Positions 11,463 through 38,408 of a stretch of DNA of 42,175 bases are shown here, piece by piece. Position numbers and translations under genes: made by a program. The DNA is taken from contig JAYUUN010000057.1 of the NCBI GenBank assembly GCA_043754535.1, positions 1-42,175 of the forward strand. The letters are read 5' to 3'. Source of the DNA: Chloroflexota bacterium (GTDB lineage Bacteria > Chloroflexota > Chloroflexia > QHBQ01). Below the pieces are notes generated by a model. That model saw only the letters and a list, made by a program, of their open reading frames with translations. It did no database searches and was not told the origin of the DNA. The first letter of the stretch is position 1. The number at the start of each line of letters is the position of its first letter.

Positions 11463-12374
11463 GTGAGCAAGAAAAGCAAACAGGCGCATGAAGTAGCACG
11501 AATAGAGCAGAGCAGCGGCCCACAAGCGGAGCAGGCCCGCCAGATAGAGATCAGCCATCTCCACGACAACCCCTACCAGCCCCGCAACGAGATGAGCAGC
11601 GAGCGGCTAGCTGAACTGGCGGGGGTGATCAGGAGTAAGGGCTTCCAGGGGGTGCTGGTCGCCAGGCCCGATCCCGATCAGCCGGGTTACTATCAGCTGA
11701 CGGCTGGGCATCGCCGGCGCGACGCAGCAGGGCTGGCTGGTTTGGACAGCCTGCCAGTACTGGTGCATCAAATCGGTGATGGCGAGATGGTCGAGTTGGC
11801 GATTACCGAGAACATCCAGCGTGAAGACCTCAGCCCGCTAGAGGAAGGCCATACCTACCTGCTGATGATCGGTGAACTTGGCTACACCCATGAGCAGATT
11901 GCTCAATCGGTGGGCAAGAGTAGGGGCTATGTAGAGAACCGTATTCGGGCTGCTCGTGCGCCACAGGATGTGCAGGAGCTTGTGCGCGACAAGCCGGACA
12001 GCCTACGTGCAATCGCCACGCTGGTCAAGATCAAGGACAATGCGCTGCGTGGCGAAGTGATATGGCAACTACGCAACGGCAAGCTGACCGTAGATGAAAT
12101 TGCAGGCTATCTTGAGGAGCAGGGTGGGCAGCAGCACCGGGTAGCAGAGTCGCTCCACAAGCAGGGCCGCCCCGCAAAGGCCTCTGACCCACTAGTAGAG
12201 GAACGAGTGATGCAGAGGGTGGGTAGCGGCAAACTGGCGGTTGCGCTACGTAGTCTGCTCGGTTACCGCGCCACCCTCGCACATGGCCGTGAGCTATCGG
12301 AGCGGGAGCGGGCCTCGCTGTTCCAACTGGCTAGCCTGATGGACGAGTTGCAGGGTTCGCTGGACAGCAAGTAG
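11463..12374 (+). CDS. parB: ParB/Spo0J-family partition protein (ParB-1)
   Basis: NPYQPR, CTPase box AGHRRRDAA, ENIQREDLSPLEE, HTH THEQIAQSVGKSRGYVENRIR; GTG start with GAGGGAG RBS. Confidence 0.85.
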   Translation: MSKKSKQAHEVARIEQSSGPQAEQARQIEISHLHDNPYQPRNEMSSERLAELAGVIRSKGFQGVLVARPDPDQPGYYQLTAGHRRRDAAGLAGLDSLPVLVHQIGDGEMVELAITENIQREDLSPLEEGHTYLLMIGELGYTHEQIAQSVGKSRGYVENRIRAARAPQDVQELVRDKPDSLRAIATLVKIKDNALRGEVIWQLRNGKLTVDEIAGYLEEQGGQQHRVAESLHKQGRPAKASDPLVEERVMQRVGSGKLAVALRSLLGYRATLAHGRELSERERASLFQLASLMDELQGSLDSK

Positions 12375-13219: not shown

Positions 13220-14075
13220 GGCTGGCCTCCACCTTCAGCGGTTTGATGCGGGCCTGCTCACTCATGTCGCTGATCTGCTCACTGCTATACACTCCTATGC
13301 GCCCTAGCAGTTCTGCCGCCAGGTTTACGTAATCGTCGGCGGCCTCGCGCACCTCACGGCGGCGACCGATGCCGAAGATGCTGGTGCCAGCGTCTGGGCA
13401 GTCGCCATGCACTGTATTCTTGGCGATGTAGCTGTCCAACACATAGGGGCGTGCGTCGGGGAAGCTGGTCAGCATCGCCTTAACCTTGGCGTTTACCCGG
13501 TTATTGGCCTCCACAAAGGTGCCGAAGATACCCAGCACTTGCAGGTTGGGGTTGGCCTTGCGCTGTACCTTCTTGACCTCTTGCAGCAGCATTGCCACGC
13601 CGTCAAAGTCGAGGATGCCCATCCGCAGGGGGATTACCAAATAGTCAGCGGCGACCAAGGCGTTGGTGTTGAGGATGCCCAGGCTGGGTGGGCAGTCGAT
13701 CAGGCAGATGTCAAAGTTCTCCTCCACCTCACTCAACACCTCGCTGAGAGCGTCGCGGCCCGTTGCATCACGCTGCAATTCTGTCTCCAGAGCGGCCATG
13801 TTTTCGCTGCCGGGAGCCAGATAGAAGTCTTCAATGCGGGTTAGCACCTCCGCCAATGGGGCGATGCTCGCGCCTTTGAGGTGGTGATAGAGGCTGTCGC
13901 AGACAGTCAGCCTGCCGTCGCCATAGGCACCCAGCCACTTGCTGCTGTGCGTCTGTGGGTCGAGGTCAACCAGCAGAACGGTAAAGCCCATGCGCGCCAA
14001 AGCCTCGGCCAGGTTGACCGATGAGGTCGTCTTCGCTACCCCCCCCTTGCGGTTCGAGATCGCTATCTTGATCAT
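13209..14075 (-). CDS. parA: ParA/Soj-family Walker-A ATPase
   Basis: Deviant Walker A NRKGGVAKTT, LLVDLDPQ, LIDCPPSLG..T.NALVAAD. Start reassigned to ATG 14075 (RBS GGAGAGGGG). Confidence 0.93.
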   Translation of the reverse strand: MIKIAISNRKGGVAKTTSSVNLAEALARMGFTVLLVDLDPQTHSSKWLGAYGDGRLTVCDSLYHHLKGASIAPLAEVLTRIEDFYLAPGSENMAALETELQRDATGRDALSEVLSEVEENFDICLIDCPPSLGILNTNALVAADYLVIPLRMGILDFDGVAMLLQEVKKVQRKANPNLQVLGIFGTFVEANNRVNAKVKAMLTSFPDARPYVLDSYIAKNTVHGDCPDAGTSIFGIGRRREVREAADDYVNLAAELLGRIGVYSSEQISDMSEQARIKPLKVEASHAA

Positions 14076-14093
14076 GTTGCCCCTCTCCAAAAC

Positions 14094-14212
14094 TGTTAGA
14101 TGGTCTAACACATATGCCGCCTTGGTGACAACCAGCCACCTACGCTGCACCATGCTGTATTCTACCACTGCGTCCCTGTTCTGTCAAAATGTGTTAGATA
14201 GTCTAACACATT
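14094..14212 (-). promoter_or_regulatory. parA promoter bracketed by two TGTTAGA-N3-TCTAACA palindromes (candidate parS or operator)
   Basis: Minus-strand TTGACA(14187-14182)-N17-TAGAAT(14164-14159) with extended TG; palindromes at 14094-14110 and 14188-14212 (AATGTGTTAGA-TAG-TCTAACACATT). Confidence 0.75.
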
Positions 14213-14563
14213 GCGGTGCGGTAGAGGGTGGAGGTAACCATCGGGTACTACCTTGCTTCCCAGTTCCGCAGTGGGCTGGCATCGCTGTTGCCAGCTAGCG
14301 AGCGTTCAGCTACAGAGTAGTAGTGCTAGCACGGCGGAGTGCTTGCCTCCCCAGCAGCAGGTCAGCCGCGAGCTAGCAAGCAGAGGGTGGTGGTGACTAC
14401 CCTCAGCAGCGCACTGGCACGGAGCAATTAGAGCGGTTGATCAGGCAGTTGAGGGCCAGTTTGTCCACTTTGCGCCGTCGTCAGGTACAAGCGCAGGTTT
14501 ACATCAATGTAAGCATAAGAACGCCGCGATTCAGTTATTATGGCAAATTGGTGGAAAAACCCC

Positions 14564-14593
14564 TTGACTCTTATGTGCCAGATCACATAGAAT
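14564..14593 (+). promoter_or_regulatory. Promoter of the phd-like/rep unit with an overlapping palindrome
   Basis: TTGACT-N18-TAGAAT; TATGTG-N6-CACATA at 14572-14589. Confidence 0.6.
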
Positions 14594-14637
14594 CGGCACA
14601 GGCTATGTTACACATTTGTTGCATCGGAGGGACGAGG

Positions 14638-14919
14638 ATGGACAGCAAGCAGATTGGCGCGGCACTGGCACTGGTAGGCGTAGCAGACGAGGGTCTGAAC
14701 GTGCGGGATTTCCGGGCGCAGTTGTCGGCCATCCTAGAGCAGTTGCCCCAACATCCCGTCTGCCTGCTCAACGTGCGTAACCGGCCAACCGCTGTGTTGG
14801 TTGATCTGCGCGCCTACCGTGAGACGCTGGCGAAGGCCGAGGCTTACGACAGGCTGCTACTGGGAGGATTGAATAGGGAGCATCGCCGCTTAAGCGGCAC
14901 CGCCCTGGCCTGGGGCTAA
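14638..14919 (+). CDS. Small Phd/YefM antitoxin-like DNA-binding protein with no adjacent toxin
   Basis: LNVRDFRAQLSAILEQL...PVCLLNVRNRPTAVLVDLRAY follows the Phd/YefM beta-alpha-beta-beta pattern; RBS GGAGG, ATG 14638, 93 aa. Confidence 0.65.
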   Translation: MDSKQIGAALALVGVADEGLNVRDFRAQLSAILEQLPQHPVCLLNVRNRPTAVLVDLRAYRETLAKAEAYDRLLLGGLNREHRRLSGTALAWG

Positions 14920-14931
14920 AAGAAGGCAAGC

Positions 14932-15028
14932 AAAAACCCACTGTGTCGCCGCCAAGCTCGTCAGTGGGTTCTACCGGATACCAGACGCTCCTTGCGGACG
15001 CGCCCAGCTTCGCTTTTGCTCTCTACTA
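14932..15028 (-). ncRNA. Predicted counter-transcribed antisense RNA (~95 nt) in the rep leader
   Basis: Minus-strand promoter TTGCAA(15062-15057)-N17-TATAAT(15039-15034) with extended TG; GCAA-tetraloop hairpin; terminator stem AACCCACTG/CAGTGGGTT with a U-tract only on the minus strand. Confidence 0.6.
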
Positions 15029-15125
15029 AGAGCATTATAGCACAGCCGGATTCTGATTGCAAGGGGTTATATACCTTTTTGCCAAAAATTGGCTGAAGGG
15101 CAAGCATAGAAAGGGCCATTTTCTG

Positions 15126-16406
15126 ATGCTTACCGCTTGCAACCCTGCCCCGGATACGCTCCGGCAGGAATCGGGTGCTACCCTGCGCCCCCAAGTCGCG
15201 CCGACCAATCAGCGCACCGCCCGCCAGATTAAGGCGCAGCCCTTCTGCTGGCAGGCCGTCTCTGCCTTGCAGACGATCCGCGCTGTCTTCCAGAATCATC
15301 GCCGCATGGCAGCCCTCGTCCTCTATACTACCCTGACCGAAATCGCCTCGCAGCAACGCACTCCTGGACAGGGCAAAACATCCTGCGCCTACCTTGCCAA
15401 CCTTGCGGGCCTTAGCGAACCGACCGCCCGCCGCTACCTGCACGAGTTCGAGCAGATTGGCCTGCTCCGCATCATCCCTGGGGTTCACGCTGCGAACACC
15501 TACGTGCTGCTCGGCGATCCCCTGGCTGACGGCTTGAGCAGCCCGCTGAAGCTAGCCGACGCACCTACCAGCCACGCCAGCCAGCCCACTACTAGCAGTC
15601 GGCTGCAACCGGTGGAGAGTGCAGGGCAGCGGCATGGCTCCACTTCCGTTGCAACGGTGACGCAGCATGGGATCACCGCTGATCGCCCAGAGCCACCCAG
15701 GGGGATCACCGCTGATCGCCAAGTTATAACAAGAGTCCTGAACAAGAAAGACGAACAACCAACAAACAGGCTGGTTGGTGAGCAGCAAGTTGATGTTGCG
15801 ATAGCTGAGCAACCCGCAGCCGACTACGCTCTCGCTGGCGAAGCGATCAACGGCCTGGTGAGGCTAGGGGTGCGCCGTAGCCTCGCCGAGCAACTAGCGG
15901 GCTGCCACCCACCAGCGCAAGTAGAGGGCTGGGTGCTATATGCCCAGGCGACGGTGGGGCTGACTAACCGCGCCGGGTTCGTCCTTGCCCGCTTGCGCGC
16001 TGGCGACCAGCCTCCCAGCCCTGCCCCCACCATCGGCAACTGGTTGCGGCAGCGGCAGGCAGCGGCTGCCGAGCAGAGTACGCTTCGGTCAAACCCTGCG
16101 CCACAGGCATCACCGCCAACCCTAGCTCCGCCTACCGCCTCGGCCACTACCGACGAGTCGCAGCTTGAGCAGGCCAAGCGCGTATGGCTAGCAGCCCAGC
16201 CCGACCTTGAGCTGCTGGTTGGCGGCGATGCCTGGCAGGGCTGGCTAACCCATTGCCGCCTGATAGCAGTGGCGGGCGACTGCTGGCAGGTCTGGCAGGT
16301 GCCTGGTGGCCTGGGCCGGGTGCTAGCCGAGCGTTGGGGCGCACAAATCGCCACCCTGCTCTCACATATCGCTGGGGGGAGGCTGCGCTTGCAGTTCGGT
16401 CGCTAG
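15126..16406 (+). CDS. Putative replication initiator: N-terminal winged HTH, central Rep-like helical domain, C-terminal DnaA domain I-like region
   Basis: wHTH SCAYLANLAGLSEPTARRYLHEFEQIGLL...ANTYVL; LTNRAGFVLARLR resembles the NPAG.L motif of Rep C-domains; tail VWLAAQPDLELLVGGDAWQGWL...CRL resembles the DnaA N-terminal domain; adjacent to parAB. Start at ATG 15126 is inferred. Confidence 0.6.
   Translation: MLTACNPAPDTLRQESGATLRPQVAPTNQRTARQIKAQPFCWQAVSALQTIRAVFQNHRRMAALVLYTTLTEIASQQRTPGQGKTSCAYLANLAGLSEPTARRYLHEFEQIGLLRIIPGVHAANTYVLLGDPLADGLSSPLKLADAPTSHASQPTTSSRLQPVESAGQRHGSTSVATVTQHGITADRPEPPRGITADRQVITRVLNKKDEQPTNRLVGEQQVDVAIAEQPAADYALAGEAINGLVRLGVRRSLAEQLAGCHPPAQVEGWVLYAQATVGLTNRAGFVLARLRAGDQPPSPAPTIGNWLRQRQAAAAEQSTLRSNPAPQASPPTLAPPTASATTDESQLEQAKRVWLAAQPDLELLVGGDAWQGWLTHCRLIAVAGDCWQVWQVPGGLGRVLAERWGAQIATLLSHIAGGRLRLQFGR
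15669..15770 (+). repeat. Iteron-like 19-bp direct repeats plus an A-rich tract inside rep
   Basis: GGGATCACCGCTGATCGCC at 15669-15687 and 15702-15720 (period 33), then AAGTTATAACAAGAGTCCTGAACAAGAAAGACGAACAACCAACAAACAGG. Confidence 0.65.
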
Positions 16407-17755
16407 GTGCGCCGCCGCACTACCATGCTGATGCCTCCCTTTGGTCGTAGCGTCACCAACGGCTCTGGGCGCACTGCCTTACCCTCGAACAACTCGAAGC
16501 GCACCCGCTGGGCGATGCTGGCGAGTAGCAGTTGTCCCTCTAGCATGGCAAAGCCGTTGCCGATGCAGACACGCGGGCCAGCACCAAACGGTAGGTATGC
16601 TCCCTTCGGGATCGCCTTCTCCCGCTCTGGGTCGAAGCGTTCTGGCTCGAAGCGGTTAGGGTTGGCAAAGTAGTCGGGCCGCCGCTGCATGGTGAACACA
16701 TCCACCATCACCAGCGTCCCCTTCTTGATCGCGTAGCCGTCAAGCATGGTATCGCATACTGCCACGCGGGGGATGAAGTGCGCGGGCGGGTAGAGGCGCA
16801 GCGTCTCCTTGAAGACCTGGGTGGTGAAGGTCAGGCGTGGTAGGTCAGCGACCGTCGGCGTGCGGCCTTGCAACACCGCGTCTACCTCGGCTAGCACTCG
16901 CTCATAGCGGCGGGGGTGGCGGGCCAGCAGGTAGAAGGCCCAGGAGAGCGCATTGGCCGCTGTCTCGTGGCCCGCAATAAAGATGGTCATCAGTTCGTCA
17001 CGAATCTGCTCGTCGTCCAAGCCGCTGCCGTCGGCATCTTGCGATTGGATCAGCATAGATAGAAAGTCGCCCTGGTCGCCTGGCTCCCTGCGCCGCTCCT
17101 CGATCATGCGGTAGATGATCGCGTTGAGTGTGGCCTGTGCCTGGCGGTAGTGCAAGGTGGCTGGCACTGGTAGGTAGCTAATGAAGGGGAAGAAGAAATA
17201 GCGGGTGACATATGCCATTGCAGTGACAATCGCATTGCCCAATTCCTTCGCCTCCTGAGTCACATCGCTAGAGAACATCACCCGGCTGATCACCTGCATG
17301 GTGATCTTCTGCATCTCCTGGGTGAAGTTGATCGTGCTGCCATCCTGCCAGATCGTCTGGCGGGCCTCGGCCACCTCGGTCATCGTCTCAGCGTAGGCAG
17401 ACACCCGCTGATGGTTAAAGGCAGGCTGCACCAGGCGGCGCACTCGGCGGTGGGGCTTGTGCTGGCTAGTCAGCAGCCCATGCCCCAGGATCGGTTGGGC
17501 AAGACCTGTCACCTGGTCGGTCTTGTCATAGTCGGCCCAGTTGCCAACCAGCACTTCCTGTACGTACTCTGCCTTGTTCACCCGCACCAGCTTGATCGGG
17601 CCGAGGTTGATCTGGTTAATATCGGGGAAGTCTCGCGCCTGCTGGTTGCGAATCCTGATCCCGTCCATAAACAAGGTGTGCAGGCTGCCCAGCAGCGGCA
17701 ACTCAAACGGGCCAGGGATCACCTTCTTTGCTGGCTTCGGACTTGTGCTGACCAT
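16403..17755 (-). CDS. Cytochrome P450
   Basis: I-helix AGHETAA, ExxR (ETLR), PERF, heme motif FGAGPRVCIG. Start probably 17755 (GGAG RBS); 17758 and 17767 are alternatives. Confidence 0.95.
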   Translation of the reverse strand: MVSTSPKPAKKVIPGPFELPLLGSLHTLFMDGIRIRNQQARDFPDINQINLGPIKLVRVNKAEYVQEVLVGNWADYDKTDQVTGLAQPILGHGLLTSQHKPHRRVRRLVQPAFNHQRVSAYAETMTEVAEARQTIWQDGSTINFTQEMQKITMQVISRVMFSSDVTQEAKELGNAIVTAMAYVTRYFFFPFISYLPVPATLHYRQAQATLNAIIYRMIEERRREPGDQGDFLSMLIQSQDADGSGLDDEQIRDELMTIFIAGHETAANALSWAFYLLARHPRRYERVLAEVDAVLQGRTPTVADLPRLTFTTQVFKETLRLYPPAHFIPRVAVCDTMLDGYAIKKGTLVMVDVFTMQRRPDYFANPNRFEPERFDPEREKAIPKGAYLPFGAGPRVCIGNGFAMLEGQLLLASIAQRVRFELFEGKAVRPEPLVTLRPKGGISMVVRRRT

Positions 17756-33590: not shown

Positions 33591-35033
33591 ATGACCCTAA
33601 AGCTATTCAATACCCTGCGCAGGCAGAAACAAGAGTTCCAACCAATGGGCCAGACTGTGGGGATGTACTGCTGCGGCCCAACCGTCTACGCCTTCGCCCA
33701 CGTTGGCAACCTGCGAACCTATGTGTTCGAGGATGTGCTGCGCCGCGTACTAGAATACAACGGCTATGCTCTCAACCAGGTGATGAATATCACCGATGTC
33801 GGCCACCTGGTCAGCGACGAGGATGAGGGCGAGGACAAGATGATCCTGGCGATGAAGCGCGAGGGCAAGTCGGCTCTGGAGATTGCCGCGTTCTACACCG
33901 CTGCCTTCCTGCGCGACCTGAGCCGCCTAAACATTGAGCCGGTGGAGATCATCTGCAAGGCGACCGACCACATTCCAGAGATGCTCGCCCTGATCCAGCT
34001 TCTGGATCAGCGCGGCCATGCCTATTCTATTGACGATGGTGTGTACTTCGATGTAAAGACCTTCCCCAGCTATGGCGCACTGAGCGGCCTCGACCTTGAG
34101 GGCCAGGAGGCGGGAGCGCGGGTAGAGGTCAACCAGCAGAAGCACAATGCCAGCGACTTCGCCCTCTGGAAGCGGGCTGCGCCGAACCACCTGATGCAGT
34201 GGGATAGCCAGTTTGGGCGTGGCTTCCCCGGTTGGCACATCGAATGCTCAGCGATGAGCATGAAGTACCTGGGCAACCACTTCGACATCCACTGCGGCGG
34301 CGTGGATCACATCCCGATCCACCACGAGAACGAGATCGCCCAGAGCGAGGGGGCGACCGGGGAGAAGTTTGTCAACTACTGGCTGCACGGCGAGTTCTTG
34401 CAGATGGACGGCGGCAAGATGAGCAAGTCGCTTGGCAACCTTTACACCCTTGACGACCTGGCAGCACGGGGGGTGGAGCCGCTTAGCTACCGCTACTTCC
34501 TGCTCAATGCCCACTATCGCACAAAGCTGAACTACACCTGGGAGGCTTTGGAGGCCCAGCAGCGGGCCTATCGCCGCCTACGCGAGTTTGTTGGCGGTGC
34601 GCTAGCGGCAGGGCAGGACGGGGCAAGCCTGGGCGATACTGCCTGGCTCGAACCCTACCACAACAGCTTTGTAGAGGCGATCAACGACGACCTCAATATG
34701 CCCCGCGCCCTCGGCCTCTGCTGGGAGCTTATCGCTGAAGCGAAGCGGCTGGGCAGTGGAGCGTTGCTGGCTGCCCGCCAGCAGTTGCTCGACTTCGACC
34801 GCGTGCTGGGCCTGGGTTTGGGCGAGGTATTGGCTTTCCGCCCAGCGGCACACAGCAGCAGCGACACCAGCAGCCTCGACGATCAGGTGAACTTGCTGAT
34901 CGCAGAGCGCAAGGCTGCACGGGCGAACAAGGACTTCAAGCGCGGTGACGAGATTCGGGATGAACTAAAGGGGTTGGGTATCGAACTGATCGACAAGCCC
35001 GGCGGTATCACTGAGTGGCGCAAGGCTGATTGA
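33591..35033 (+). CDS. cysS: Cysteine--tRNA ligase
   Basis: YCCGPTVY..AHVGN (HIGH), NITDV, DFALWK, GFPGWHIECSAM, HHENE, KMSKS; TGTTGTATAAT upstream. Confidence 0.97.
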   Translation: MTLKLFNTLRRQKQEFQPMGQTVGMYCCGPTVYAFAHVGNLRTYVFEDVLRRVLEYNGYALNQVMNITDVGHLVSDEDEGEDKMILAMKREGKSALEIAAFYTAAFLRDLSRLNIEPVEIICKATDHIPEMLALIQLLDQRGHAYSIDDGVYFDVKTFPSYGALSGLDLEGQEAGARVEVNQQKHNASDFALWKRAAPNHLMQWDSQFGRGFPGWHIECSAMSMKYLGNHFDIHCGGVDHIPIHHENEIAQSEGATGEKFVNYWLHGEFLQMDGGKMSKSLGNLYTLDDLAARGVEPLSYRYFLLNAHYRTKLNYTWEALEAQQRAYRRLREFVGGALAAGQDGASLGDTAWLEPYHNSFVEAINDDLNMPRALGLCWELIAEAKRLGSGALLAARQQLLDFDRVLGLGLGEVLAFRPAAHSSSDTSSLDDQVNLLIAERKAARANKDFKRGDEIRDELKGLGIELIDKPGGITEWRKAD

Positions 35034-35098: not shown

Positions 35099-35908
35099 AT
35101 GTACATAATGGTGACGAACGATGACGGCTATGATAGTGAGGGGCTGTTGGTGTTGAAGCAGCAGTTGGAGCAGGTGGCTGAGGTGGTGGTGCTAGCCCCC
35201 GACCACAATTGGAGCGCAAGCGGCCACAGCCGCACCCTGCGCGACCCCTTGCGGGTGTGGGAGGCGCAGTTGCGCGATGGTTCGACCTGCTACATCAGCG
35301 ACGGCACACCCTCGGACTGCGTAGCCCTGGTGACGCTCGGCTTCTTGGGCCGTAAACCCAATCTGATCGTCAGCGGCATCAACCGGGGCAGCAACCTGGG
35401 TGACGACATCACCTACTCTGGCACGGTGGCGGCGGCGATGGAGGGAGCGATGCACGGCATACCCAGCATTGCGGTCTCCTGCGAGGGTCGCGGCAAGTGG
35501 CATTTTGAGACAGGCGCACTGTACGCTGCGAAGCTGGCCCAGCAGGTTGCCAAGCGCGGCCTACCAGATCACACCCTGCTCAACCTCAATACGCCCAACC
35601 TGCCGCCTGCCGAGATTAAGGGGCTGGAGATCACCCGCATGGGCCGCCGCTACTATAAGGACGAACTGATAGAGCGGATTGACCCCTTCGGCCAGAAGTA
35701 TTACTGGACGGCGGGCGAGCCACACGCGCTGGAGCCGGATGACGGCACCGACACCGGGGCAGTCGCTAACGGCAAGATCAGCATCACCCCCCTGCACCTC
35801 GACCTGACCAGCCACGCCATGCTGGCGGATTTGGCAGGCTGGGAGCTGGAGTTAGCTCGCCGAGCCACTTATTGCATCTCCTGCATTATGCAACAGCAAA
35901 CACAGTAA
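35099..35908 (+). CDS. surE: 5'/3'-nucleotidase SurE
   Basis: TNDDG, DGTPSDCV, SGINRGSNLG...YSGTVAAA, ISITPL. Confidence 0.95.
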   Translation: MYIMVTNDDGYDSEGLLVLKQQLEQVAEVVVLAPDHNWSASGHSRTLRDPLRVWEAQLRDGSTCYISDGTPSDCVALVTLGFLGRKPNLIVSGINRGSNLGDDITYSGTVAAAMEGAMHGIPSIAVSCEGRGKWHFETGALYAAKLAQQVAKRGLPDHTLLNLNTPNLPPAEIKGLEITRMGRRYYKDELIERIDPFGQKYYWTAGEPHALEPDDGTDTGAVANGKISITPLHLDLTSHAMLADLAGWELELARRATYCISCIMQQQTQ

Positions 35909-36099: not shown

Positions 36100-36837
36100 G
36101 TGGCGAAGGCAGCAGCTAACGAGCAAGCGCAAGCGGTGGCGGCTGAAGCGGCGGCGGAGCAGGCAGCGGCGCAGGCGGCTCTGGCTGCCGAGTTGGAGGG
36201 CAGCAAGCCAACCTCAACCTGGCTGCCGCGGCTGGTGGCGATCAGTCTCGCGTGCCTGGCGATTGTTGCGGCCAGCGTCTTCTTCTACCAACAGGCCAAC
36301 GCCCCCGCCCAGGCCATTACTACTCTCCCCCTGCACGCAACTGCCACCCACGCTGGCAAGCAGGCCATCGTCGTCTACGTGACCGGCGCGGTTTCCGCCC
36401 CCGGTGTCTACCGCCTGTGGGATGATGCGCGCATCGGCGACCTGGTGGGCAAGGCGGGCGGTCTGTTGCCCGCTGCTGACCCTGTGGCGATCAACCTGGC
36501 CGCCCGGCTTGAGGATGGAGAGCAGGTGAACGTCCCCTTCAAGGCCACCGCTGCCCCGGCTGCCCCGCTGACCGTGATCGGTAAAGCGGCCAGCCAGCCG
36601 AGTGGAACGGCTGCTGCGGTAGCCGCTAAGTCGCCCACGCCCGGCAAGGTCAACCTCAACTCTGCCAGCGAAGCTGAACTGGATGCAGGTCTGCCAGGGG
36701 TCGGCCCGGTACTGGCAAAGAATATCGTGGCCTACCGCACGGCTAACGGTCACTTCCGCAGCGTAGACGATCTCCGCAAGGTGGACGGTATCCACAAATC
36801 ACTTTTCGACAAACTCAAGCTGCTGGTCACTGTCTAG
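36100..36837 (+). CDS. comEA: Competence DNA receptor ComEA (TM, SLBB, helix-hairpin-helix)
   Basis: VYVTGAVSAPGVY, INLAARLEDGEQ, KVNLNSAS..EL..LPGVGP.LA..I..YR..NG.F.SVDDL.KV.GI. Confidence 0.92.
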   Translation: MAKAAANEQAQAVAAEAAAEQAAAQAALAAELEGSKPTSTWLPRLVAISLACLAIVAASVFFYQQANAPAQAITTLPLHATATHAGKQAIVVYVTGAVSAPGVYRLWDDARIGDLVGKAGGLLPAADPVAINLAARLEDGEQVNVPFKATAAPAAPLTVIGKAASQPSGTAAAVAAKSPTPGKVNLNSASEAELDAGLPGVGPVLAKNIVAYRTANGHFRSVDDLRKVDGIHKSLFDKLKLLVTV

Positions 36838-36866
36838 GCCAAACAAACTGCTGAGAGGAGCCGCTC

Positions 36867-38408
36867 ATGGTGATGGTCTACGTGGCGGCTGGCTGGCTCC
36901 TCGGCATCTTCGTGGGCAGCGAACTTGCGCCCCTGCCTATCCTTGTGCTGCTCACCTGCGGGCTGGCGGCGGTGGCAATAATTGTTCTTGGTAGGCGGCT
37001 GCCTGCTGGTCTGGCCCGCCAGATCGGTTGGGCTACCCTCGCCCTCACCCTCGGCCTCTGGCGCGCCACTGCTGCCCAGCCGTCGCTTGGCGCGCATGAT
37101 CTCAGCTACTACAACACCTACCGGACGGTGCAGATCGTGCGTGGGGTGGTGGATCAGCCGCCAGAGGCCCGCGACCGCGACCTGCGCCTGCACCTCGCTG
37201 GGCGAGCGGTCTGGCGCGACAGCGAAAACCACTGGCAGCCAGTGGGTGGCTCCATGCTGGTCAGCCTGCCGCTCACCGACAGCAGCCACTACCGCTATGG
37301 CGACCTGCTCGAACTGCAAGGGCTGCTAACTGCCCCGCCCGCCTTTGGTGGTAGCTACAGCACTTACCTGAAGCGGCAGGGCATCCTCAGCTACAGCCAC
37401 AACCCGGATGTGTTGGCCGCTGGCAAGGAGAACGCGCCGCTAACCAGCTTCTATGGCTGGCTGTTTGGCCTGCGGGAGGCGGCAGGGCAGGCTGTCAACC
37501 GCCAGTTCCCCCAGCCCGACGGCGCGCTGCTCAACGGCATCTTGCTTGGCGACCGCACGGGGCTACCAGGCTGGTTGAGCGACGACTTTGCCAGCACTGG
37601 CACCGCCCAGATCGTGGCGATCTCCGGCCAGAATATGGTCTACGTCCTCGGCTTTATTCTCCTGCTAGCCGACTGGCGCAAGCGACCGCGCAGCCGCTAC
37701 GCCCTCTATGGCGTGGCCCTGGTTGCCGTCTACTCGGTATTCGTGGGAGCAAGTGCCAGCGTAGTGCGCTCGGCGATCATGGCGGGTGTGGTTGCGCTGG
37801 CGATTGCCCTCGGCGAGTCCTACAACGTGACCGCCGCTCTCGCCTTCGCTGCGATCCTGATGACCGCCTTCAACCCAGCCTACCTCTGGGATATTGGCTG
37901 GCAGCTAAGTTGCGTGGGGATCCTCGGCCTCGTCTACGTCGCTCCTTTGCTGAAGGCCGTCTTCGACCACATCCTGCGTGGTAGGCTGTCTCGCTTGCGC
38001 TGGCTAGGCGGCCTGCTCTCGGTCTCCATCGGCGCACAACTGGTGACAGAGCCGCTGATCTGGATGTACTTTGGTCAGGTCTCGCTCATCTCACCGCTCG
38101 CCAACATCATCGCCGAACCCCTGTTGCCGCTGATCATGGCTTTTGGGGCAATCAGTGTGCCGTTGCTGCTGCTTTGGCCGCCTCTGGCGATCCCCTTCGC
38201 TGCACTGGCCTGGGTCTTCCTGCGGGCGATGATCCAGATCGTCGAGTTCTGCGCCCTGCTACCCTTTGCTGCCCTGCAATTGCCCAACCTCTCCGTCTGG
38301 TGGGTGCTGGCCTACTACAGCGCATTGGCAGCGGTCGTAGTCTGGTGCAATGCCTTGCGGGTAGAGGCTAGAGCCGCGCAATTGACCGCCAGGCTGGCTG
38401 TCGGCTAA
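36867..38408 (+). CDS. comEC: Competence membrane channel ComEC (OB-fold plus Competence domain, no C-terminal beta-lactamase domain)
   Basis: GILLGDR, AISGQN, SVVRSAIM, NP...WDIGWQLS, SLISPLAN; directly follows comEA. Confidence 0.88.
   Translation: MVMVYVAAGWLLGIFVGSELAPLPILVLLTCGLAAVAIIVLGRRLPAGLARQIGWATLALTLGLWRATAAQPSLGAHDLSYYNTYRTVQIVRGVVDQPPEARDRDLRLHLAGRAVWRDSENHWQPVGGSMLVSLPLTDSSHYRYGDLLELQGLLTAPPAFGGSYSTYLKRQGILSYSHNPDVLAAGKENAPLTSFYGWLFGLREAAGQAVNRQFPQPDGALLNGILLGDRTGLPGWLSDDFASTGTAQIVAISGQNMVYVLGFILLLADWRKRPRSRYALYGVALVAVYSVFVGASASVVRSAIMAGVVALAIALGESYNVTAALAFAAILMTAFNPAYLWDIGWQLSCVGILGLVYVAPLLKAVFDHILRGRLSRLRWLGGLLSVSIGAQLVTEPLIWMYFGQVSLISPLANIIAEPLLPLIMAFGAISVPLLLLWPPLAIPFAALAWVFLRAMIQIVEFCALLPFAALQLPNLSVWWVLAYYSALAAVVVWCNALRVEARAAQLTARLAVG

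Follow-up and report, generated by a model that had tools for sequence, protein, structure and literature searches.

Contig C57 (JAYUUN010000057.1) of a Chloroflexota genome assembly (132 contigs, 88.9% complete) carries a predicted small RNA gene between a Phd/YefM-like gene and a gene for a replication-initiator-like protein, here called rep. The window is this entire contig, 42 kb. The RNA gene lies on the minus strand and had been described in an earlier note, made from the DNA letters, as an unannotated counter-transcribed RNA proposed to limit rep expression. The features of the locus are given below (nt, nucleotides; aa, amino acids).

14564..14593, plus strand: rep-sense promoter-like site, TTGACT-18-TAGAAT (10/12), upstream of the phd-like gene and kept in the sister genome
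14638..14919, plus strand: Phd/YefM-like gene (PF02604, E = 1.1e-6, 28.8 bits against a cut-off of 29.8)
14908..14927, tentatively minus strand: hairpin 3 (GCCU...AGGC), loop UUUUAGCCCC
14932..15027, minus strand: predicted small RNA, ~96 nt, its start placed 7-8 nt after the -10 and its end at the U-run
14935..14970, minus strand: hairpin 2, with a lower stem of 9-11 base pairs (bp), a 4x4 interior loop, a short upper stem and UUGGCG at 14950-14955, then U5
14981..15007, minus strand: hairpin 1, with a GCAA (GNRA) loop at 14992-14995
15034..15042, minus strand: extended -10, TGC-TATAAT, separated from the -35 by a 17-nt spacer
15057..15062, minus strand: small-RNA promoter -35 hexamer, TTGCAA, from the sequence and the promoter scan
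15081..15093, unstranded: inverted repeat GCCAA-N3-TTGGC, between the RNA promoter and rep, upstream of the -35
15102..15131, plus strand: rep messenger RNA (mRNA) hairpin in which the Shine-Dalgarno region (AGAAAGGG, 15108-15115) and the start codon (15126-15128) are base-paired
15126..16406, plus strand: rep-like gene, 426 aa, with a winged helix-turn-helix, a helical middle domain and a C-terminal domain like DnaA domain I

The minus-strand promoter scores 10/12 with TG in the promoter scan, and the surrounding 2.5-kb region (14000-16500) holds three promoter-like sites, against 0.8 ± 0.9 in shuffled sequence. Folding of the 96-nt sequence 15027-14932 gives two hairpins with a minimum free energy of -38 kcal/mol (z = -2.8), a stability that 1 of 200 shuffles equaled. 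The promoter and both hairpins were thus recovered where the earlier note had placed them: on refolding, hairpin 1 occupies 15007-14981 with its GCAA loop, and hairpin 2 occupies 14970-14935 with UUGGCG above the 4x4 interior loop, followed by U5. The note had given the RNA as about 95 nt, in good agreement with the ~96 nt predicted here, and had claimed that hairpin 2 terminates in the minus direction only. This also holds, since the plus strand after the hairpin reads UUCUACC, and termination is therefore possible for minus-strand transcription only. Hairpin 2 was not listed by the terminator scan of the window region because the scan rule requires a loop of 3-8 nt. We propose that hairpin 2 serves as both recognition loop and terminator. 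The RNA ends are predictions, and read-through into hairpin 3 is possible. Two features go beyond the earlier note. One is hairpin 3 (14908-14927), which covaries and whose loop contains the stop codon of the phd-like open reading frame (ORF) in the window; the other is the inverted repeat at 15081-15093, which might bind a protein as an operator or form a hairpin in the mRNA.

Two further contigs of the window's assembly, C112 and C104, each carry a paralogue with about 70% DNA identity, and matching relatives are present in all four other genomes of the same family (f1). A covariance model (R1) built from 14 copies scores window positions 14904-15042 at 123 bits (E = 1.4e-25). It finds 18 copies in the five f1 genomes (3, 4, 5, 1 and 5 per genome) and, across 40 genomes of the order, eight weaker copies in two genomes of genus g5, with none in 26 genomes of family f2 or 7 of genus g4. 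Among 151 sampled Chloroflexia genomes, seven match, from 3 of 52 genera, giving 26 copies in total. A search for related loci with a six-protein alignment returned six, all from Chloroflexia/Chloroflexi metagenome-assembled genomes. A pattern scan of metagenomes returned nine loci, eight of which match the model; seven are near-copies of three known types and therefore add little. The earlier note had called the RNA unannotated, and this stands: no Rfam 15 family matches anywhere in the window at gathering thresholds, and at E values up to 10 the interval 14850-15150 yields noise only (mir-183, 14.9 bits; SpR10, 14.5 bits). Annotated plasmids gave no match to window 14400-16500 in a distant blastn search. 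Judged from these comparisons, the RNA gene belongs to a previously uncatalogued RNA family.

The copies share a common anatomy. The minus-strand promoter is kept in 26/26, at a constant distance from the hairpins, with a spacer of 17-18 nt. Its -35 is TTGACA (6/6) in 17 copies; its -10 is TATAAT (6/6) in 14 and matches 5/6 in another 11, and the TGn extension is present in 21. The promoter of the 26th copy was misplaced by the covariance model alignment, and its sequence reads TG-A-TATAAT. About 10 nt upstream of the -35, most f1 copies carry the inverted repeat as GCCCAA-TT-TTGGGC, and one carries GCCTAA/TTAGGC. On the RNA strand there follow an A-rich 5' tail AGAGCAAAA, hairpin 1, mostly GNRA-capped, hairpin 2 with its U-run, and hairpin 3 with the loop UUnAGCCCC. 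Hairpin 2 has a mean energy of -19 kcal/mol over the 26 copies. The T-run after it is 3-5 long in 25/26 and at least four in 16. UUGG occurs in the hairpin-2 top of 18 copies, nine of which have the identical top GCUUGGCGGC.

The earlier note had named conservation and covariation across homologous loci as checks, and both came out in its favor. In an alignment of the 26 copies plus two partial opposite-strand rows, which is fitted to the model and whose copies are related, 91.6% of paired cells can pair, against 79.4% in shuffles (0/500 reach it) and 39-48% in slid controls. Double, compensatory changes occur at 19 of 31 pairs, against 11.0 expected, and are spread over every stem: 8/10 pairs in hairpin 1, 5/11 in the lower and 2/3 in the upper stem of hairpin 2, and 4/5 in hairpin 3. 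Conservation in 26 homologous copies together with this covariation is, at the level of sequence, the strongest argument that the element did not arise by chance. A coding reading of the element was rejected, as its changes are pairwise compensatory and its indels are not multiples of three; a 1-nt indel distinguishes the window from its 98%-identical relative, and one copy has a 20-nt insertion.

The comparison also assigns the structure to a strand. Across the 26 copies the RNA strand pairs in 91.5% of cells and the rep-sense strand in 77.7%. The difference is widest in hairpin 1 (87.5% on the minus strand, 66.9% on the plus), where 69 of 281 cells are G-U. These values bear on a reading in which the functional structure is the plus-strand rep leader, a cis-regulatory element of the mRNA, and the minus-strand promoter is incidental. 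All hairpins do also form on the plus strand, more weakly, the rep start is structured, and hairpin 3 is strand-neutral (90.5% against 85.7%). The G-U pairs of hairpin 1, a U-run that follows hairpin 2 on the minus strand only and a minus-strand promoter kept in every copy all speak for the RNA strand, and we regard the leader reading as very improbable.

The second constant of the family is its position. Of the 26 RNA copies, 22 precede a replication-type gene, at 50-125 nt from its start. Two more are the upstream members of tandem pairs (G002:C198 and G004:C227), and in the remaining two the start was not placed by script (G000:C104, whose gene was identified by direct inspection, and G022:C8, at a contig end). 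The partner genes are of four kinds rather than one family. The window's winged helix-turn-helix and DnaA-domain-I-like protein and its relatives accompany most f1 copies, an HTH_36 protein (E down to 8.9e-9) accompanies those of genus g5, a zinc-ribbon/Toprim_2 (9e-7)/NTPase protein those of C104 and C112, and HTH proteins those of Chlorohelix, described below. In most copies the rep start is folded, in that a hairpin of lineage-specific sequence pairs the Shine-Dalgarno region and/or the start codon. Equivalents of the window hairpin are CAUGGAAA/UUUCCAUG, CAUCAGAGA/UUUCUGAUG and GGCUC/GAGCC, and AUUCUCC/GGAGAAU in Chlorohelix.

The window Rep-like protein is likely a replication initiator, a role that we accept because of its modeled fold, the adjoining parA and parB genes and its relatives. 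It has weak helix-turn-helix matches in Pfam and falls in no named family; 5.8 billion clustered proteins contain five relatives, one of which matches Pfam DnaA_N at 8.6e-5. A tblastn search of annotated plasmids gave no match to it. Its AlphaFold model has a mean pLDDT of 65 and three confident domains, and a structure search against the PDB gave no match at an E value of 1e-3 or better. The C-terminal domain finds its best PDB match in DnaA domain I (4tps_D, E = 4.6e-3, target TM 0.81, rmsd 1.9 over 82 columns), and the N-terminal domain matches winged-helix folds that include the N-domains of plasmid RepA proteins (4pql_B, 5kbj_H and 4pt7_B). A disordered stretch of about 100 residues separates the winged helix-turn-helix from the DnaA-domain-I-like domain.

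The position of the RNA gene also bears on two further readings. In the first, the minus-strand transcript is associated with an origin, and its promoter activity activates or primes nearby replication. Upstream of the window rep-like gene, and divergent from it, are a ParA gene (PF13614, 1.9e-46) and a gene for a ParB-like protein; the RNA gene thus sits between par genes and rep, a frequent site of origins, and one kind of partner gene encodes a primase-like protein. No iteron-like array surrounds the element, the RNA runs away from rep and stops at a terminator-like hairpin, and its architecture fits regulators, not primers. We give this reading very little weight. In the second, the RNA has some other job and travels with replication modules, as a trans regulator of host or partition genes or as a binding partner of Rep or some other protein. 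Protein or tertiary contacts could account for the mostly GNRA loop and the widespread UUGGCG top, and the three copies in the window's genome have the same hairpin-2 top. What the RNA keeps as its constant partner is a rep-type gene directly downstream, whatever the family of that gene; its variable part coincides with the site where antisense specificity would be expected, and no other conserved complementary target was identified. Another job for the RNA appears unlikely.

At two loci, L020 (G002:C198) and L021 (G004:C227), a single rep gene is preceded by two complete cassettes, arranged in tandem at a distance of about 400 nt. The tandem copies differ in their hairpin-2 tops (UUGGCG/UUGGCC against UGCCAG). 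Between them lies a small conserved ORF ('...RCWPLPD...', about 50-70 aa) that has no Pfam match.

A similar arrangement occurs in Candidatus Chlorohelix allophototropha, a member of another order of Chloroflexia. All three of its circular plasmids (375, 241 and 55 kb) encode distant relatives of the g5-type protein (27-36% identity, E from 9e-10 to 3e-4). Each relative adjoins a ParA-family or AAA-ATPase gene, with ParB too in two of the three plasmids. Directly upstream of the rep-like gene, all three plasmids have a minus-strand promoter (TTGACA-17/18-TG-TATCCT), whose -35 begins 20 nt from the annotated start, followed by an A-rich tail, a small hairpin 1, a hairpin 2 (AUCCCC/GGGGAU) with UUUUCUU, and a third hairpin, which has a U-run after it on two of the plasmids. 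About 330-350 nt before rep, plasmids 1 and 2 have the same rep-sense site, TTGACA-16-TACAAT (11/12), and the leader would therefore span the whole RNA gene. The window family and the Chlorohelix elements resemble each other in architecture, possibly but not necessarily through homology. Plasmid 1 (NZ_CP128401.1, 375 kb) has two matching places in both protein and DNA searches and may carry a second rep/RNA cassette.

Replicons found together differ mainly where an antisense RNA would be read. The Chlorohelix cassettes are nearly identical except at the hairpin-2 top: plasmid 1 departs from plasmid 2 at 13 positions between the rep ATG and the U-run, seven of which fall in the 17 columns of that top. 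Between C104 and C112 there are 14 differences from hairpin 3 to the -10, and seven lie in the hairpin-2 interior loop. This divergence is as expected for a determinant of incompatibility, to the extent that sequence can indicate it. For plasmids of the I complex, only top-loop and interior-loop changes of RNAI are reported to alter incompatibility (PMC10724649).

An antisense RNA acts on a transcript that crosses it, and the DNA upstream of the window RNA gene offers a possible source of one. No plus-strand terminator-like site was found in 14000-16500, and hence none between the 14564 site and rep. No plus-strand promoter-like site lies between the RNA -35 and the rep start in the window or in genus g5, where these are separated by ~65 nt and ~50 nt, respectively. 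Across the family, rep-sense sites of at least 10/12 occur within 450 nt upstream in 6/26 copies, against 0.43 expected from shuffles, and C104 and C112 have 11/12 rep-sense sites in upstream DNA that is not homologous. Homology between these two contigs covers the stretch from hairpin 3 to the rep start, and the DNA upstream of it is unrelated. The mobile unit therefore comprises hairpin 3, hairpin 2, hairpin 1, the promoter and the start region.

The same surroundings bear on the idea that the cassette is a convergent-promoter insulator, whose promoter and hairpins block or collide with upstream transcription into rep, in cis only, and whose RNA product is functionless. The cassette does stand behind many different, mostly co-oriented genes (Phd/YefM-like in 6/18 f1 copies, or a P22_AR_N antirepressor-like gene, a HATPase_c_4 regulator or a methyltransferase), homology between the paralogues starts exactly at hairpin 3, and the promoter is very strong. 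Interference of this kind requires a promoter, not three covarying hairpins with a mostly GNRA loop and a conserved hairpin-2 top, and it leaves unexplained why the differences between co-resident replicons cluster in the top and interior loop of hairpin 2. We find a purely insulating role improbable; an insulator effect and an antisense effect could coexist.

We consider it likely that the minus-strand RNA is a cis-antisense copy-control RNA acting on rep. This is what the earlier note had proposed, and every comparative test of the sequences agrees with it (promoter, covariation, strand, position and the divergence of hairpin 2). By analogy with the antisense RNAs of well-studied plasmids, the most likely role of the gene would be to set the copy number and compatibility of its replicon. 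The minus strand from 15027 to 14932 would be transcribed constitutively into a structured small RNA, complementary over its whole length to the untranslated leader of the rep transcript. The sense mRNA crossing the RNA gene of the window would most likely be a phd-like/rep transcript from the 14564 promoter, and the Phd/YefM-like product is a candidate for a repressor co-transcribed with rep. First contact with the leader would be made by the exposed hairpin-2 top, where a UUGG loop of the U-turn type stands over an interior loop, and a second contact by the A-rich single-stranded 5' tail of the RNA. Binding would lower Rep synthesis, so that RNA dosage would report the copy number of the replicon, and the loop sequence would decide which replicons cross-react. 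The effect is probably on translation, or on mRNA stability through cleavage and decay of the duplex; we favor these because a hairpin locks the rep start region. The convergent promoter, being strong, may also act in cis through transcriptional interference.

Two more specific routes to repression were tried and rejected. For a structural switch, 14 leaders were folded free and with the target masked, and the predicted mean unpaired probability of the start region was unchanged (0.26-0.50 against 0.26-0.51). For a pseudoknot or second-site contact, the hairpin-2 loop was compared by eye with the inverted repeat and the start-hairpin loop, which gave matches of 4-5 bp and no consistent covariation.

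A number of observations weigh against antisense control of rep. The RNA 5' end (15027) is ~100 nt before the rep start codon and 81 nt from the Shine-Dalgarno region (15108), and simple masking of the ribosome-binding site is therefore excluded. Transcription attenuation was rejected, as the leader has no plus-strand terminator-like site. Control through a leader peptide was rejected as well: 22 copies were scanned from hairpin 3 to rep for ORFs preceded by a Shine-Dalgarno sequence, and no consistent ORF was found. A TTG-started 'LPKIGHGKG' frame with poor Shine-Dalgarno spacing occurs in four to five f1 copies and is absent from the window, whose leader contains no ORF with a Shine-Dalgarno-like sequence. 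No rep-sense site of at least 9/12 was recognized within 500 nt upstream of 13/26 copies, where transcription from upstream genes, or from promoters that the scan misses, would have to supply the sense RNA. The U-run after hairpin 2 is short in part of the family (3 T in nine copies, 2 in one). The three copies binned with the window genome share the UUGGCG top and differ only in the interior loop, which would risk cross-talk if C57, C104 and C112 share a cell; their co-residence rests on metagenome binning. Among public sequencing runs, 12 DNA runs contain the stretch or part of it, and no RNA run is listed as containing it. Model R1 scores the Chlorohelix elements weakly (E = 0.13-0.63), and the link between them and the window family therefore rests on architecture.

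Like plasmid counter-transcribed copy-control RNAs, the window RNA is served by a promoter of its own opposite the rep leader, and it combines stable stem-loops with an exposed loop, which is often YUNR in counter-transcribed RNAs, and a predicted intrinsic terminator. In size, in the number and order of stem-loops and in distance from rep it is most like CopA of plasmid R1 (IncFII). CopA is an antisense RNA of ~90 nt with two stem-loops, complementary to a leader some tens of nt upstream of rep. Its 3' stem-loop carries the recognition loop above a destabilized upper stem and is also the terminator, and the R1 operon has a small repressor gene, copB, upstream of rep. CopA is said, by the title of Blomberg et al. 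1992, to inhibit leader-peptide translation. The likeness to CopA/CopT and CopB thus extends to size, the two stem-loops, the 3' recognition loop and terminator, and the repressor-type gene upstream. The differences are that there is no sequence or Rfam similarity, that the Rep proteins are unrelated and that a third hairpin is present here. Furthermore, there is no consistent leader peptide here, and the upstream protein is Phd/YefM-like and encoded at only 6/18 f1 copies.

The loop motif resembles that of the Inc RNA, or RNAI, of the I complex (ColIb-P9, IncB and IncK), and the earlier note had compared the loop with this type of control. The hexamer UUGGCG is in the recognition loop in both systems; in ColIb-P9 this loop belongs to the target, whereas here it belongs to the antisense RNA. 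Structure closes the rep start region in both as well. The UUGGCG motif is named in the title of Asano et al. 1998. There are two to three hairpins here against one in the I complex, no repY-like leader ORF, no supported pseudoknot partner and no Rfam match. The comparison with ColIb-P9 therefore stands for the loop motif and the divergence of hairpin 2 and fails for the leader peptide and the pseudoknot. The top and interior loop decide incompatibility in the I complex (PMC10724649), and the differences between co-resident replicons here fall in the same places.

Two other types of control are less similar. The attenuation systems of pT181 and pIP501 likewise use a multi-stem-loop antisense RNA against a rep leader, well upstream of the start codon, but require an intrinsic terminator in that leader, and the window plus strand has none. 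The operon layout resembles that of CopG and RNAII of pMV158, in which the gene for a small DNA-binding protein and rep form one operon and the antisense gene is intergenic and opposite in direction (PMC4485353). This dual layout is shared, and so is a single-stranded 5' tail, which in RNAII is important for binding (PMC4485353). RNAII has 48 nt and one hairpin, its target is immediately upstream of the repB translation signals, and its loops are without a U-turn motif (PMC4485353). The window target ends ~100 nt before the start codon and so does not abut the translation signals, a UUGG loop is present here, and the Phd/YefM-like gene accompanies just 6/18 f1 copies.

A broader proposal, which we advance tentatively and hold to be rather doubtful, is that the promoter, three hairpins and locked start form a portable antisense cassette that has come to stand before at least four unrelated or very distant initiator types in two Chloroflexia orders whose genomes comprise multiple replicons. 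The top and interior loop of hairpin 2 would then be an address code that keeps co-resident replicons compatible. Repression would take a route so far undescribed, since 45-100 nt separate the target from the locked start downstream of it and there is no attenuator, leader peptide or pseudoknot. If the antisense reading of the RNA is right, the covariance model is ready-made for annotating a new RNA family, and the RNA would mark the rep genes of replicons that otherwise could not be annotated and predict compatibility among the replicons of one cell. The promoter, RNA and leader could also serve as vector parts for a phylum without genetic tools. In the literature that we searched, no report of replication control by antisense RNA in Chloroflexota was found. 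Cultured Ca. Chlorohelix allophototropha, with its three plasmids whose near-identical cassettes differ at the hairpin-2 top, offers a natural test bed.

The contig also encodes an ABC-F protein, a sugar ABC transporter and the following genes.

11463-12371, plus strand: a second, canonical ParB (ParB_N 1.6e-20 and HTH_ParB)
33591-35030, plus strand: cysteinyl-tRNA synthetase (CysS)
35099-35905, plus strand: SurE
36100-38405, plus strand: ComEA/ComEC

With such housekeeping genes on the contig, a small plasmid is less likely here than a chromid, a megaplasmid or an integrated module. The Phd/YefM-like gene of the window has no toxin partner. At locus L023 (G001:C236), a Phd/YefM-like gene is followed by an ORF of 115 aa that overlaps it by a few bases and has no Pfam match; this ORF may encode the toxin partner. 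The parA promoter of the window (TTGACA-17-TAGAAT, 14187-14159, 11/12) has a perfect palindrome, AATGTGTTAGA-N3-TCTAACACATT (14188-14212), overlapping its -35. A related half-site, TATGTTACACAT (14600-14617), lies directly 3' of the -10 of the 14564 phd-like/rep promoter, and a third copy of the palindrome-related site is at 14100-14113. Together, these look like a shared operator tying the partition genes to the replication genes.

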